A stretch of 28,608 bases of DNA, taken from sequence record DRR723986_5073; one strand, given 5' to 3'. The translations under genes and the position numbers were made by a program. Below, one piece after another: positions 8,319-15,516 of this stretch (its first letter is position 1; every line of letters begins with the position of its first letter). The notes beneath the pieces were generated by a model that ran no database searches, had not been told where the DNA came from, and was given only the letters and a program-made list of their open reading frames with translations.

Positions 8319-9725
8319 ATGGCTGAGCACGCTTACGATTTCGACCTGTTTGTGATCGGAGGCGGCTCCGGTGGGGTGCGCGCGGCGCGTATCGCAGCCA
8401 TCGCCGGCGCGCATGTGGGACTTGCGGAAGAATACCGGATGGGCGGCACCTGCGTGATCCGCGGCTGTGTGCCCAAGAAGTTCATGGTCTATGCCAGCCA
8501 GTATGGGAAAGACATCGAGAAGTCTGCCGGCTATGGCTGGAGCGTCGGTGACGTCTCGTACGATCACGGAACATTTGCTGCCGCGATGCATGCCGAGGTC
8601 GATCGGCTGTCGGGCATCTATTTCCGCAACCTCAAAAATGCGGGCGTCGATATTTTCGAAGAGCGTGCCGAGTTCGTGGATGCGCATACCATCCGCCTGA
8701 AAAACAGCGGCAAGACGATCACCGCGGAGAAGATCCTGATCGCCGTCGGCGGCGCGCCCTGGCGCCCATCCCCGGAAGAGCTGCCGGGCGTCGAACACAC
8801 CATCACTTCGAATGAGGTGTTTCATCTGGAAGACCTGCCGCAGCATGTCGTGATCGCAGGCGGCGGTTACATCTCGGTTGAGTTCGCACACATCTTCGCC
8901 GGGCTCGGCGTGCCGACCTGCCTCGTCTATCGCGGCGAGGAAGTGCTGCGCGGCTTCGATGCCGATGTGCGTACGGCGGTGCATGAAGGACTGAAAGAAG
9001 CCGGTGTGCGGGTTGTGACCGGCGCGGTGTTCGACAAGATCGAGAAGCGGGACGGTGGAGATCTTCCGCTTCACATTACACTTTCGAGCGGCAGCCATAT
9101 CGATGCCGATGTCGTGCTGATGGCCGTTGGCCGCCGCCCCAATACAGAAGGACTGGGCTGCGAAGCGGCCGGGATTGAGCTGGATGACAATGGCGCCGTC
9201 AAAGTGGACGAATGGTCCAAGACCAATGTCGACAGCGTCTGGGCTGTTGGCGACGTCACTGACCGTGTGGCACTTACACCGGTTGCGATCCGTGAAGGCC
9301 ACGCCTTTGCCGATACCGAGTTCGGCGGCAATCCGTGGCACTTCGATCATTCGGATATTGCGACGGCCGTCTTCTCCCAGCCGGAAGTCGGCACGGTCGG
9401 CCTCAGCGAGGCCGATGCCCGCAAGGCCTATGGCGCGGACATCGATATCTACAAGACCAACTTCAAGCCGATGAAGAACGCCCTCAATGGCGACACCAGC
9501 CGTGTGCTGATGAAGCTGGTCGTGCGCGCATCCGATGAAAAAGTGCTGGGGGTTCACATGGTGGGCGACGATGCGGCTGAAATCATCCAGGCTGTTGGCA
9601 TCGCCATCAAGATGGGCGTCACCAAGCCGGACTTCGACCGCACCTGTGCCGTGCACCCCTCCGTCTCGGAAGAGCTCGTGACCATGCGGACGAAATGGGT
9701 ACCGGAAGTGACGAGCAACGCCTGA
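8319..9725 (+). CDS. gor: Glutathione-disulfide reductase
   Basis: GGGSGGVRAAR, GGTCVIRGCVPKK redox-active disulfide, GGGYISVEFA, LTPVAI, HPSVSEE. Confidence 0.97.
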   Translation: MAEHAYDFDLFVIGGGSGGVRAARIAAIAGAHVGLAEEYRMGGTCVIRGCVPKKFMVYASQYGKDIEKSAGYGWSVGDVSYDHGTFAAAMHAEVDRLSGIYFRNLKNAGVDIFEERAEFVDAHTIRLKNSGKTITAEKILIAVGGAPWRPSPEELPGVEHTITSNEVFHLEDLPQHVVIAGGGYISVEFAHIFAGLGVPTCLVYRGEEVLRGFDADVRTAVHEGLKEAGVRVVTGAVFDKIEKRDGGDLPLHITLSSGSHIDADVVLMAVGRRPNTEGLGCEAAGIELDDNGAVKVDEWSKTNVDSVWAVGDVTDRVALTPVAIREGHAFADTEFGGNPWHFDHSDIATAVFSQPEVGTVGLSEADARKAYGADIDIYKTNFKPMKNALNGDTSRVLMKLVVRASDEKVLGVHMVGDDAAEIIQAVGIAIKMGVTKPDFDRTCAVHPSVSEELVTMRTKWVPEVTSNA

Positions 9726-9788
9726 CGCCGTCGTGCGTCATGGCATTGTTTCGCACAAGTCTCCATTCGCAATCGAGGCCGAACGCTT

Positions 9789-11096
9789 TTAGTGCGTTTC
9801 GTCGCAGAGCGTCTTCAGTTCCAGTGCAATCGTCTTCAGGCTTTCGCGGATCTGCTTCAGCCCGCCGCCGCGTCCAGAATGGATGACCAGCTGTTTCCAG
9901 GCGGGCTGGCCTTCCTGCGGCGGCTTGATGGCAAGGTGCTTTGATCGCGGCAGGGCCGATTTCAGCAAGGCGTCCGACAGCTTGAACCCGGCAACGTCAT
10001 CGAACGCGCCATTCCGGGCATCGGCCTCGAACGTGGATTGCTCGGAGCGGCTGACCGCATTGAACAGCACGGAAAGAGCCGGGCGCTTCGCCGCCGGGAT
10101 CTGCGTCCGCACGACTTGGTTCAGCAGCTTCACCCCGCGCAGGGAATAGATATCGGTATGCATCGGCGCCAGAACGCGGTCTGCCGCTTCCAGCGCGCAG
10201 CGCGTGAGGAAGGTTGCGTTGGGGTTTGTATCGAACACGATCAGGTCGTATTCGCTGCGATAGAAGTCCACCTGGCGCAGGAAGTGGAGCTTGATCTTCT
10301 CCAGGGCTTCATTGTCGGTGGCGAAGGCGTATTTCGAGATCTCGAACTGGCCGGAAATGATATCGAACCGGCCGGGCGGGCTGTTGCCGTCTGCCATGAG
10401 GTCGTGGACGAGATAGTCCCGCGCAACCGGGGCAAAGGGCTCGGTCGACAGGTTCAGCCAATGCTCCGCCGGGCTTTCCGCGTCGCGGGTATGCAGGCGG
10501 GACCGTTCGAACAGGGAAATGACGGACCGGTCGGCTGCCGCGCTCTCGTCGGCGACGTCCATCTCATAGAAAGTCTGGGTCAGATTGTATTGCGGATCGA
10601 GATCGATCAGCAGGATGCGTCCGCCTGCCATGGCGTGCCACGCGCCGAACACCTGCGCGGAGACGGTCGTCTTGCCGACCCCGCCCTTGAGGTTCATCAC
10701 CGCGATGACCGGGCATTTCCTCTTGTAGGCATCCTGGGTCTGCTGGACGAGCTGCTCCAGGCCGCCGGGCGTGGTGCTGGACAGGCGCAGATGCGGCTGG
10801 ACTTCCTGCTTGAAGAAGCCGTTCAGGCGCGCCTTGTCGATTTGGTAGGGGATCAGCGGCAGGCCGCGGGCCTTGGCGCGCTCGATATCCTGCCGCACCG
10901 ACTTCGAACGCACCGAGGAGGCCGAGACCAGCACGATCATCGCGAACGCATCGTCGATATGTTCATTGTTACGCTGACGGTCATTGTCGTCGTCAGGTGC
11001 GAATTTGACCGGAACAGAGGCGGCCCGCATCGCTTCGTGAAGCTTCAGCAGGTCGTCGAGGTCCAGCGTCGAGTGGGCGATGTAGACGTGAGACAT
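9789..11096 (-). CDS. TIR-like domain / ParA-family ATPase fusion protein (435 aa)
   Basis: aa 1-105 fit the TIR_2 pattern (VYIAHS; MIVLVSASSVRSKSVRQDIERAK..GLPLIPY). aa 128-435 are ParA: IAVMNLKGGVGKTT, LIDLDPQYNLT, LIVFDTNP, ALEAADRVLAP. ParA call is strong, TIR call moderate. Confidence 0.85.
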   Translation of the reverse strand: MSHVYIAHSTLDLDDLLKLHEAMRAASVPVKFAPDDDNDRQRNNEHIDDAFAMIVLVSASSVRSKSVRQDIERAKARGLPLIPYQIDKARLNGFFKQEVQPHLRLSSTTPGGLEQLVQQTQDAYKRKCPVIAVMNLKGGVGKTTVSAQVFGAWHAMAGGRILLIDLDPQYNLTQTFYEMDVADESAAADRSVISLFERSRLHTRDAESPAEHWLNLSTEPFAPVARDYLVHDLMADGNSPPGRFDIISGQFEISKYAFATDNEALEKIKLHFLRQVDFYRSEYDLIVFDTNPNATFLTRCALEAADRVLAPMHTDIYSLRGVKLLNQVVRTQIPAAKRPALSVLFNAVSRSEQSTFEADARNGAFDDVAGFKLSDALLKSALPRSKHLAIKPPQEGQPAWKQLVIHSGRGGGLKQIRESLKTIALELKTLCDETH

Positions 11097-11245
11097 GATC
11101 TCGCGGCGGTCCCTTCAGGCTTGCCTCAGGTCCTGTCTAAGTAAGGGGAGGCGGGGTGATTCCGCCAGCTTTCTGCTGTGAAATTGTGGTGAAACTTGAG
11201 CGATCGCCTGCCATGTGATTAATGCGGCCATCAATGGAGCGTAAG

Positions 11246-12625
11246 ATGAGCAACTGGACCCCTTCCGACTGGCGCGAACTGCCGGCGAAGCACATCCCGG
11301 AAGATTACCCGGATACTGCAGCACTTGCTGCAGTAGAGGCCCGTCTGCGCTCGTTTCCACCGCTTGTTTTTGCCGGGGAAGCCCGACGGCTGAAAACACG
11401 CCTGGCCGAAGTGGCCGCGGGCGATGCTTTCCTGCTTCAGGGCGGCGACTGTGCCGAAAGCTTCAAGGAATTCCATCCGGACAACATCCGCGACACGTTC
11501 CGCGTGATTTTGCAGATGGCCGTCGTGCTGACCTTCGCCGCTGCCAAGCCGGTGGTGAAGGTGGGCCGTATTGCCGGCCAGTTCGGCAAGCCGCGGTCTG
11601 CTCCGATCGAGACGATCGATGGCGTGACGCTGCCGTCCTACCGGGGCGACAACATCAACGGCATGGATTTCACGCCGGAAGCGCGCATGCCCGATCCGGA
11701 GCGCCTGATTCAGGCCTACTCCCAGTCGGCAGCGACGCTGAACCTGCTGCGCGCCTTCAGCCAGGGTGGCTATGCCAGCCTCGCCAACGTGCACCGCTGG
11801 ATGCTCGGCTTTGTGGATCGCAGCTCTCAGGGTGAACGCTATGAGAAGCTGGCGGACCAGATCTCGGCCTCGTTGCGCTTCATGGAAGCGGTCGGACTGA
11901 ACGCCGAAACCGTGCCCCAGATGGCGCAGGTGGAGTTCTACACCAGCCACGAAGCCCTGCTGCTCGGCTACGAGGAAGCGCTGACCCGCATCGATTCCAC
12001 GTCTGGCGACTGGTACGACACGTCGGCCCACATGCTGTGGATCGGCCACCGGACCCGTCAGGTGGATCATGCCCATGTCAATTTCTGCAACGGGATCAAG
12101 AACCCGATCGGCATCAAGTGCGGCCCCGGTATGGAGCCGGACGAGCTTGTTCGCCTGATCGAGACGATCAATCCGACAGACGAGGCAGGCCGGATCACGC
12201 TGATCACGCGCTTTGGCTCCGATGGCGTGGCGAAGGGACTGCCGCCGCTGGCACGTGCCGTAAAGGCAAGCGGCCGCACGGTGGTGTGGTCCTGCGATCC
12301 GATGCACGGCAACACGCTGAAGACCGACTCCGGCTTCAAGACGCGTCCGGTGGACCGTATCCTCTCCGAGGTGCGCCAGTTCATCGACGTCATGAACGCC
12401 GAAGGCTGTTACCCGGGCGGGGTTCACTTCGAGATGACCGGCCAGAATGTCACCGAATGTATCGGCGGCGCGCAGGCCATCTCCGAGGACGACCTCTCCA
12501 GCCGCTACCACACGCACTGCGACCCGCGACTGAACGGTGAGCAGGCGCTGGAGCTGGCCTTCCTGGTGGCAGAGAAGCTTCAGGCGCTCGGCAATGGCAA
12601 GGACGCGGCCCGCAAGGCCGGCTGA
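11246..12625 (+). CDS. Class II 3-deoxy-7-phosphoheptulonate (DAHP) synthase, start MSNWTP, 459 aa
   Basis: [58 protein letters not shown] before ATG 11246. Confidence 0.96.
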
Positions 12626-14601: not shown

Positions 14602-15516
14602 CTATATGCCTGGAATCCAGCCCTCTTCGGTCTGAATTTTCGTGTTTTCTGCCGTATCCACGCTTTTGGCTGTGGAAAAAGCAGCTGGAAGGGCCCCTTT
14701 TTCGTCGAGGGAGGCGAAATAATGGGCGATTCCGCGGACCTGGGCGGCATCCGGAGTTTCGCCGGATTCGGGGGTTACCTTGGTCAATGAGGGGTAAATC
14801 TCGGTCATCACGACCTTCACGTCAGTGAGCGCTTCCTCAGTCAGGGGTTCTGCGGGATCGAATTCGAACGGCCAGATCCGGGCGTCAGGCCAGGCCTCGC
14901 GCAGGGCGTGGACATGCGGAATCCCGGTCAGGGACTGGCTGCCGACACTGCCGGTATAGGCCAGCTGCCAGATGGACTTCGGCTGGCCGATTTTATTGTC
15001 CCGGAGATAGGCCTCTGCGATGCGGTATTCCCGCAGGGGCGCGCCGGTGAAATCAGGTTTTGTGCTACCCAGTGTCGAGACGACATCGCGCGCCGGCGCG
15101 CCCCAGAAGGGAAACGGGCCCTTGGAGATCGCATAGTTCATGCCAGCGGCGATGGCGTAACGCGCATTGGAATTGTCGGGCTTGTCCTTCAGCTTCGCGG
15201 CGAGGTGCTCATGCATTGCCTGCCACGGTGCCTTGCCGTCCAGCTTGAGGCCGAGGGCCTCTGCCGTGCCGGCCGGATAACCAAGCGAGAAGTCAAATCC
15301 CAAGAGAACACGGTCGCCGCGCTTCGTCAGCTTACCGACCATGTCCTCCAGGAAATTGCGGGCCTTAAGACGCGTCTCGATATTCACGGAGCGGTACTGC
15401 AGCTTCAGGCGTGCGTCCTTGGCCAGGATCCCAATCCAGATCGAATTGGGCCCGGTCACAGGCTTGGACGCCGCGCTCCAGTCCACCATGATGTACGCGT
15501 CGAAAAGGGTCGCCAT
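14602..15516 (-). CDS. Conserved hypothetical protein, DUF429-like predicted RNase H-fold nuclease
   Basis: N-terminal VDWSA, LLGFDFSLGYP, GSVGSQ, WPFE, EIYPS, C-terminal EEGWI; starts 2 nt after the upstream gene's stop. Confidence 0.6.
   Translation of the reverse strand: MATLFDAYIMVDWSAASKPVTGPNSIWIGILAKDARLKLQYRSVNIETRLKARNFLEDMVGKLTKRGDRVLLGFDFSLGYPAGTAEALGLKLDGKAPWQAMHEHLAAKLKDKPDNSNARYAIAAGMNYAISKGPFPFWGAPARDVVSTLGSTKPDFTGAPLREYRIAEAYLRDNKIGQPKSIWQLAYTGSVGSQSLTGIPHVHALREAWPDARIWPFEFDPAEPLTEEALTDVKVVMTEIYPSLTKVTPESGETPDAAQVRGIAHYFASLDEKGALPAAFSTAKSVDTAENTKIQTEEGWIPGI

Follow-up and report, generated by a model that had tools for sequence, protein, structure and literature searches.

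In bacteria, a TIR domain is nearly always taken to be an immune effector that consumes NAD+, TIR NADases being activated by oligomerisation, and a ParA protein to be a positioning switch, the ParA/Soj/MinD proteins forming ATP-sandwich dimers via a signature lysine. Both modules meet in a single polypeptide encoded in a stretch of 28,608 nucleotides (sequence record DRR723986_5073; hereafter the window, in whose coordinates positions are given) that the names of near-identical database proteins assign to the genus Hyphomonas, family Hyphomonadaceae, where a minus-strand gene at 9789-11096 joins an N-terminal TIR domain to a complete ParA-type ATPase. Here we compare this TIR-ParA fusion with its closest described relatives and argue that, as judged from sequence comparison, the best explanation of the gene is a vertically inherited branch of a wider TIR-ParA family, a branch with neither a partner gene nor, as a rule, the catalytic glutamate of the TIR domain.

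The closest described system is a lineage catalogued in a computational preprint by Li, Burroughs and Aravind (bioRxiv 10.64898/2026.10.19.760177), which predicts an immune role for a lineage with 'TIR directly fused to ParA', places it among 'sporadic ParA lineages' in the ConB1/ParA-HeH branch and proposes, for ParA-HeH pairs, that the small partner is a regulator or sensor. The string 'Hyphomon' does not occur in its main text. The lineage resembles the window protein in carrying an N-terminal TIR on ParA with a variable insert after strand β-2, and the two marks given for PriB1, an Asn before Walker A and a Gln two residues after DxD, have their counterparts in N135 and Q169, both invariant. 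Two differences stand beside these likenesses: the TIR of the preprint's lineage is called 'NAD+-targeting', whereas in the window's branch Asp or Gln replaces the catalytic Glu, and the lineage is sporadic, whereas the window's branch is fixed and syntenic in one family and lacks the small partner.

The first-pass annotation of this DNA had called the gene an orphan fusion and did not recognise the N-TIR/C-ParA order as a characterised system. The architecture is no oddity, being listed in the preprint and recurring in at least 64 sequence clusters; in keeping with that annotation, a literature search found no experimental work on TIR-ParA fusions. ParA goes unmentioned in a survey of E. coli TIR proteins (PMC11350192). 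What is new is a Glu-less, partner-less, lineage-fixed variant of an architecture so far catalogued only computationally.

Two folds in one protein

The open reading frame (ORF) has the extent first assigned to it, running uninterrupted from an ATG start through 435 codons and a stop. Its TIR domain (aa 1-108; 10773-11096, minus strand) was delimited from Pfam searches of orthologs, an AlphaFold2 (AF2) model, Foldseek and VIA-align, with strands at aa 4-7, 30-32, 52-57 and 81-85 and helices at aa 10-25, 40-49, 59-76 and 93-98. The TIR motifs VYIAHS (aa 4-9), MIVLVSASSVRS (53-64) and GLPLIPY (78-84) are present. The Pfam family TIR_2 (PF13676) matched the whole protein at E 3.5e-5 and 24.7 bits, and aa 1-128 at 27.4 bits, against a gathering score of 28; ThsB_TIR gave 20.6 bits with the whole protein and 23.5 with the N-domain, the cut-off being 21.2. 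Orthologous N-domains matched TIR_2 in 20 cases out of 20 (E <= 0.01, best 3.8e-11) and ThsB_TIR in 19. The AF2 model of aa 1-128 has a pLDDT (predicted local distance difference test) of 91.8, and all its listed Foldseek matches in the PDB are TIR domains, namely RPS4 (the best, 9.6e-6), AbTir, the TIR-APAZ of SPARTA, SpbK, PdTIR and MAL, with TMq 0.6-0.78. VIA-align, which is independent of Foldseek and covered 48,161 chains, likewise put the RPS4/RRS1 TIR on top (Z 15.4, root-mean-square deviation 2.1, 127 residues aligned), with further TIR matches in TRR-2 (Z 15.0), MAL (14.7) and ThsB (14.6) and the related nucleoside deoxyribosyltransferases ranking below the TIRs. The N-terminal TIR domain that was proposed from motifs is in this way borne out, the predicted structure confirming a TIR fold for aa 1 to about 108. 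Helix α-A of this domain carries conserved residues that are specific to the branch (H20-E21 and R24). A linker (aa 109-127; 10716-10772, minus strand), which in the secondary structure of both models is largely one long helix (aa 112-127), leads from the TIR to the ParA domain.

The ParA/Soj-type ATPase domain (aa 128-435; 9792-10715, minus strand) matched Pfam AAA_31 at E 1.9e-26 over aa 130-331 and, in PDB sequence-profile searches, Soj 6iub (1.8e-18) and pNOB8 ParA (4.2e-18). The full-length AF2 model (pLDDT 86.1; pTM, the predicted template-modelling score, 0.84) found pNOB8 ParA (3.4e-12, TMt 0.69), Soj 1wcv (5.1e-11) and ParA 8ray (TMt 0.74) in Foldseek, and also ParA2, delta and McdA. 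The deviant Walker A sequence NLKGGVGKTT (aa 135-144; 10665-10694, minus strand), of which KGGVGKTT at 137-144 includes the signature lysine K137, is invariant in all 27 aligned orthologs, which are 38-85% identical: N135, K137, G138, G139, G141, K142, T143 and T144 do not vary. The same holds for D165, D167, P168 and Q169 of the Walker A'/sensor-1 motif DLDPQ (aa 165-169; 10590-10604) and, in the Walker B strand LIVFDTNP (aa 285-292; 10221-10244) with its FDTNP core at 288-292, for L285 and D289-T290-N291-P292, I286 being kept in at least 90%; both motifs are read on the minus strand. Because these motifs are invariant across the 27 orthologs, the ATP switch appears intact, and the claim of a full deviant-Walker-A ParA with its signature lysine is upheld by family match, motifs and fold alike. 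A PADLOC match to PDC-M28B (E 1.5e-4) is limited to the P-loop region (aa 124-167), and membership was rejected.

Two further features mark the ATPase. The first is a 47-residue insert past strand β-2 (aa 196-242; 10371-10511, minus strand), mostly coil with a short helix at 226-229 and pLDDT 87-89, in which S208, P209, W213, F221 and G242 are invariant and which is common to TIR-less and Glu-type relatives. The second is a branch-specific GRGGG motif (aa 408-412; 9861-9875, minus strand) ahead of the C-terminal helix 411-433, in which G410 is invariant and R409, G411 and G412 are kept in at least 90% of orthologs; it is not present in the Glu-type and TIR-less relatives aligned.

The place of the catalytic glutamate

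In HMMER alignments the W..E glutamate of each of three solved TIRs (BtTir 7uxr, 9m0n and Cat1 9mud) lines up with position 70 of the window protein, which is Asp (codon at 10887-10889, minus strand). Across 134 distinct orthologs position 70 is Asp in 98, Gln in 33, Glu in two and Tyr in one, the Trp place of the motif is mostly Ala, Ser or Thr, and no other conserved acid was seen, in the ortholog alignments, in the helix that bears position 70. Among 64 representatives of the TIR-ParA family the residue is Glu in 58, Asp in three, Gln in two and Ala in one, and in an alignment of 20 Glu-type members it is invariant. A quick, unrooted IQ-TREE phylogeny of 79 rows gathers the D/Q proteins of the Hyphomonadaceae in an 11-row clade (SH-aLRT 99) nested within a 16-row clade (98) that includes Glu-bearing relatives; the further TIR-bearing outgroups have Glu in every case except P0139 (Gln), and over 72 rows the tree requires at least four changes between Glu and another residue. 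Since proteins outside the clade almost all have Glu, its loss is the simplest reading. An NADase or signal-synthase reading of the domain is weakened for this gene because Asp occupies the catalytic place, as Gln does in 33 of the 134 orthologs, and the TIR chemistry of the window's branch has probably been lost or strongly reduced.

These substitutions bear on two other accounts of the protein. According to one, the gene is a single-gene abortive-infection or immune effector, fixed in the family, whose ParA part senses or coats invading DNA and clusters the TIR domains, Asp70 still supporting NAD+ depletion or signal synthesis. That the wider family keeps the catalytic Glu (the 58 of 64 above) and is a predicted immune lineage in bioRxiv 10.64898/2026.10.19.760177 speaks for such an effector; Gln at the catalytic place in a quarter of the orthologs, with no other acid in the helix and the rest equally conserved, and the lost Trp of the W..E motif speak against it. 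According to the other, the TIR is a ligand sensor that binds NAD+ or an ADP-ribose-like nucleotide without cleaving it. Binding would gate the dimerisation of ParA, so that a positioning switch would respond to the metabolic or signalling state of the cell. Glu-to-Gln is the classic change that preserves binding and stops catalysis, the catalytic place is limited to Asp, Gln or Glu in 133 of 134 orthologs, the pocket-forming scaffold is otherwise invariant (D12, D14, S58, S64) and the domain is under purifying selection. The same pattern, however, fits a purely structural role, and the Trp that stacks on the substrate in many TIRs is absent, so that we consider a sensor of this kind improbable.

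The wider family and its Glu-type operons

A profile of the orthologs was run against 1.84 billion cluster representatives (50%-identity clusters), where 141 proteins reached E <= 1e-30. When the best 150 were taken, and those of 380-640 aa with a TIR-profile match were kept (one tandem-TIR protein being excluded), at least 64 clusters, the query included, showed TIR followed by ParA; several relatives of about 290 aa have the same ParA subfamily without a TIR. Metagenomic Glu-type relatives point, as taxon leads only (Atlas scores 0.85-0.88), to Actinomycetota, Bacteroidota and Pseudomonadota. Two side observations belong here. Four metagenomic proteins without ParA, P0246 (2208 aa), P0251 (615 aa), P0264 (720 aa) and P0269 (876 aa), are tandem-TIR proteins with 4 to 7 or more copies that closely match the TIR profile of the family, and P0309, a 413-aa protein of the 'eukprot' eukaryote set, is 32% identical to the Glu-type P0131, perhaps through a transfer like those reported in the preprint or through contamination.

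Within the Hyphomonadaceae themselves, 27-35% identical Glu-type paralogs are scattered: 10 of the 151 genomes of the family carry them, as does one genome besides, a distribution that favours the immune effector. The window protein matched a profile of 20 Glu-type members at 2.7e-114 and groups with Glu-type members in the tree, and Pfam places TIR_2 above threshold, together with AAA_31, on all three of the paralogs scanned (L030, L031, L032). Eleven paralogs were examined. All seven of the 426-514-aa kind have a co-directional ORF of 137-142 aa that abuts or overlaps their stop codon, an arrangement described in no paper, forming two-gene operons (L030:6761-8610, L032:6265-8143, L119:2573-4263, L120:2294-4040, L121:2392-4346, L122:2552-4293 and L123:2442-4218). 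All four of a longer form of 619-671 aa (L031:6068-8083, L124:979-2889, L125:2781-4670 and L126:2445-4304) have no small downstream ORF and carry a C-terminal extension of about 200 aa, which may stand in for the partner. The Glu-type operons thus share with the window gene the domain order, the ParA subfamily and the profile matches, two of their proteins (L119 and L030) being 25-27% identical to the window protein, and differ from it in keeping the S.W...E motif, in possessing a partner ORF, and in being sporadic and situated at other chromosomal sites.

The partner ORFs are fast-evolving (12-40% identical among themselves) and share a layout in which a basic Pro/Lys linker connects two helical portions, one N-terminal and one C-terminal; Pfam gave no significant family for any of nine small ORFs searched. 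They may correspond to PHeH, the partner in the ParA-HeH systems of the preprint. A partner-ORF profile found no match in four complete Hyphomonas genomes (G001, G014, G126 and G063; control 2.2e-50), a negative that counts for little because small ORFs evolve so fast. The missing partner gene argues against an immune effector of the kind set out above. As far as their genomic context is visible, the Glu-type members, sporadic operons with a fast-evolving partner, have the look of conflict systems.

Distribution, synteny and selection

The distribution of the window's own branch is of another kind. Ortholog-grade matches (E <= 1e-89) are present in 89 of 151 Hyphomonadaceae genomes and in all 28 Hyphomonas species genomes; by genus code they number 28/28 in g1, 23/28 in g14, 14/19 in g21, 12/15 in g12, 3/10 in g13 and 0/27 in g15. 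Five other families of the order (16 genomes) gave no match beyond generic ParA, and in a class-wide sample of 301 genomes, with five candidates scored per genome, the Hyphomonas genome alone has a full-length TIR-ParA, TIR-less relatives being found in five other genomes. In a pattern search of genome contigs for a generic Walker A plus DxDPQ, the matches listed include three orthologs (from H. beringensis and two metagenome-assembled genomes), the remaining 77 loci listed being generic ParAs. The Hyphomonas genome G001 has other ParA-type genes too, which are weaker matches.

By tblastn synteny all 20 loci examined have the DAHP synthase gene directly next to the TIR-ParA gene, and 14 of the 20 have gor beside it; the syntenic set includes two Glu-bearing orthologs of genus g13 (L027 and L028), 38-39% identical, which lend some support to an immune effector. 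Small ORFs downstream of these two genes were rejected as antisense shadows of gor.

Selection was estimated as Nei-Gojobori (NG86) dN/dS, the ratio of nonsynonymous to synonymous substitution rates, over 141 pairs with dS 0.05-1.2. The TIR domain (aa 1-110) has a median of 0.195 and ParA (aa 128-435) one of 0.172, and in the 12 least saturated pairs (dS up to 0.70) dN/dS ranges over 0-0.23 for the TIR and 0-0.10 for ParA, so both domains are under purifying selection. Defence genes are usually patchy and turn over fast. The constraint on the TIR domain in itself suits an immune effector, but a gene that all 28 species genomes of the genus have at one locus, with dN/dS of about 0.2, is unlike such turnover, and the PADLOC match is weak (E 1.5e-4) and confined to the P-loop region. 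The behaviour of the window gene is that of a core gene passed on vertically within one family, unlike that of a mobile defence gene.

The same data bear on whether the gene is a decaying, functionless relic of a defence gene. The catalytic Glu and the partner gene have gone, and two complete genomes lack the gene cleanly, as a relic would predict; yet the ORF is full-length and free of stop codons in every ortholog-grade match, dN/dS is about 0.2 or less in both domains, invariant motifs have newly arisen and codon usage is native. GC3, the GC content at third codon positions, is 0.82 in the TIR-ParA gene, within the 0.71-0.83 of its neighbours, and the gene is therefore native DNA. The dN/dS values come close to refuting the relic reading, which retains only a minute probability.

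Proposed function

Control or presentation of the TIR by ParA dimerisation, as the first-pass annotation proposed, would be the natural mechanism for such a protein. The other possibility raised there, a TIR fold that equips a positioning ATPase for self-assembly or as an adaptor, agrees with the data better than NADase activity does. We infer that ATP binding would produce a sandwich dimer of aa 128-435 through the signature lysine K137, probably on non-specific DNA, binding of which is likely because the structures closest to the model are those of DNA-binding ParAs, and that dimerisation would place at least two TIR domains side by side. Such assembly would have turned on NAD+ cleavage in the ancestral, Glu-type proteins, where the small partner would regulate or sense; the assembled TIR of the window's branch would instead serve assembly or bind a partner or ligand, rather than hydrolyse NAD+. 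With Glu replaced by Asp or Gln and the preceding Trp gone, the TIR is likely not an NAD+ hydrolase, and this points to a non-suicidal cellular role. We put at roughly 0.5 the probability that the TIR domain is an ATP-gated assembly, adaptor or sensor module in such a function, in a branch that probably descended from a conflict system.

Several observations weigh against this assignment. Asp is chemically close to Glu and may yet support catalysis, and position 70 still matters, since it is held to Asp, Gln or Glu and does not drift freely. The syntenic Glu-bearing genes L027 and L028, from one genus, show that the Glu can persist in a gene standing alone at this site. Two 100% complete g14 genomes (L127 and L128) are without the gene, gor there being followed directly by the DAHP synthase gene, and because the site is cleanly empty in complete genomes the TIR-ParA gene must be dispensable. 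In g18 and g27 (one genome each), two genera without the window's gene, the gor/aroG gap holds a TIR-less ParA and a 122-aa ORF (L129:5453-6669 and L130:1903-3125); the two gap ParAs (283-285 aa) share 61% identity, against 26-27% with the window protein, and the 122-aa ORFs are 38% identical between the two genomes. The gap between gor and the DAHP synthase gene may thus be a recurrent landing site for ParA modules, and its having taken ParA-type modules more than once supports an origin in a conflict system and keeps the immune effector alive, as does its emptiness in two genomes. The AF2 models, moreover, were built on alignments of only 20-27 sequences. Lastly, no cargo or partner was identified. 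Taken with the evidence given earlier, an immune effector seems to us the main alternative, serious though unlikely.

Separately from this weighing, the C-terminal part of the 122-aa ORFs of L129 and L130 looks Rho-N/HeH-like by eye.

If the preferred reading, a TIR acting as a non-suicidal assembly, adaptor or sensor module, is carried further, the gene could be a domesticated immune module, which lost its partner and its Glu, gained new conserved surfaces and now belongs to the core cell biology of the stalked and budding Hyphomonas group as an ATPase. We regard this as a long shot. Examples of the role it could have are a landmark or driver of the second step of chromosome transfer through the stalk, or a nucleotide-sensing timing switch. 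The mechanism of that second step is called 'unknown' in PMC6650430, which makes no mention of TIR, 'ParA-like', orphan or paralog. Because the same source describes a genetic system for Hyphomonas neptunium, the domestication idea would be testable there, provided that this species carries the ortholog.

Relation to other TIR and ParA systems

A second arrangement described in bioRxiv 10.64898/2026.10.19.760177 is the ConB2 TIR-ParA 'apoptosis' system (FxsC-FxsT), in which an inactive TIR on ParA (TIR-FT) is proposed to aid multimerisation, a logic that is also the one proposed here for the window's TIR. In that account the inactive TIR stands at the C-terminus, and a gene of its own, further upstream, supplies the active TIR, whereas the TIR of the window protein is N-terminal, and ConB2 proteins have the Walker A Lys replaced by Arg and carry fused sensor or STAND domains, whereas the window protein keeps K142. 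No TIR gene was found upstream of or near the window gene among the ten neighbours scanned. On these grounds, K142 kept, TIR N-terminal and no TIR gene nearby, ConB2 membership was rejected.

Among the positioning ATPases, ParA/Soj, pNOB8 ParA, ParA2 and McdA are the best matches of aa 128-435 and share with it the complete sandwich-dimer motifs; beyond a classic ParA, the window protein has the N-terminal TIR, the 47-residue insert and GRGGG, and it has no adjacent ParB or adaptor. TadZ/CpaE resembles it in placing a flavodoxin-like N-domain before a MinD/ParA ATPase, and 3fkq ranks 45 with the full model, but the N-domain of TadZ/CpaE is receiver-like while the best matches of the window's N-domain are TIRs: its listed structural matches are TIRs, deoxyribosyltransferases and some GTPase chains, with no receiver among them. 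TadZ/CpaE was rejected, no tad/cpa pilus genes lying among the ten neighbours scanned. Thoeris ThsB was likewise rejected, the neighbours scanned including no ThsA-like gene (SIR2 or Macro with SLOG).

The locus and its expression

The gene order at the locus is glmU-rpiA-gor, then the single-copy TIR-ParA gene, then aroG-MATE. GlmU, RpiA and the gor-like gene, a pyridine-nucleotide disulfide reductase, lie on the plus strand on one side, and the DAHP synthase and MatE transporter genes on the plus strand on the other, the TIR-ParA gene being solitary on the minus strand. The ten neighbours scanned comprise KdtA, DUF374, GlmU, RpiA, the gor-like reductase, class II DAHP synthase and MatE, together with two oxidoreductases and one ORF that matches no family; these ten, all housekeeping genes, include no parB and no defence or mobile-element family, in agreement with the first reading that no parB, cargo or defence gene is adjacent. 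Nor was a ParB-type or adaptor partner gene found adjoining the TIR-ParA gene, 63 bp alone separating it from the stop codon of the converging gor gene.

Three observations concern the annotation of this region. The DAHP synthase ORF is listed from 11222, and conservation among orthologs starts at the ATG at 11246 (MSNWTP...; region 11222-11260), from which the start is probably 11246 and the intergenic gap 149 bp. A 304-aa ORF at 14602-15516 (minus strand) has no Pfam family and adjoins the MatE gene in most related loci, with 46-97% identity. In one RNA-library contig, which comes from a close relative, gor and the TIR-ParA gene are joined at their 3' ends with 67 spacer bases absent (window 9721-9789), so that strains differ in the length of the spacer.

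In the divergent gap between the TIR-ParA and DAHP synthase genes, an alignment of 31 upstream regions reveals a block conserved across the genus (11157-11225), with direct repeats TTTCAC-N5-TTTCAC and a GANTC at 11158-11162, which could serve either gene. The CtrA box is TTAA-N7-TTAA; a full box was present in none of the 31 upstream regions, and no sigma-70 consensus match was found. Four RNA-library contig sets from three studies contain pieces 90-99% similar, from relatives in metatranscriptomes, that cover most of the gene. They show the presence of the gene and not its transcription, DNA carry-over being possible in RNA libraries since one contig joins the 3' ends of converging genes.

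Implications

The two kinds of TIR-ParA gene in the Hyphomonadaceae are of interest for different reasons. In the Glu-type operons the partner ORF of about 140 aa makes for a concrete two-gene candidate for anti-phage activity. The window's branch constitutes a natural experiment in which a TIR-ParA fusion is no longer a sporadic conflict gene: at one site across the family both domains are kept under selection, the catalytic residue is replaced and the partner has been shed. The architecture itself is no longer unknown; it is the apparent domestication that is unusual. If the TIR domain is now a scaffold or sensor, the branch would be the bacterial counterpart of TIRs that act as scaffolds in the innate immunity of animals, and it would document the domestication of a defence gene.

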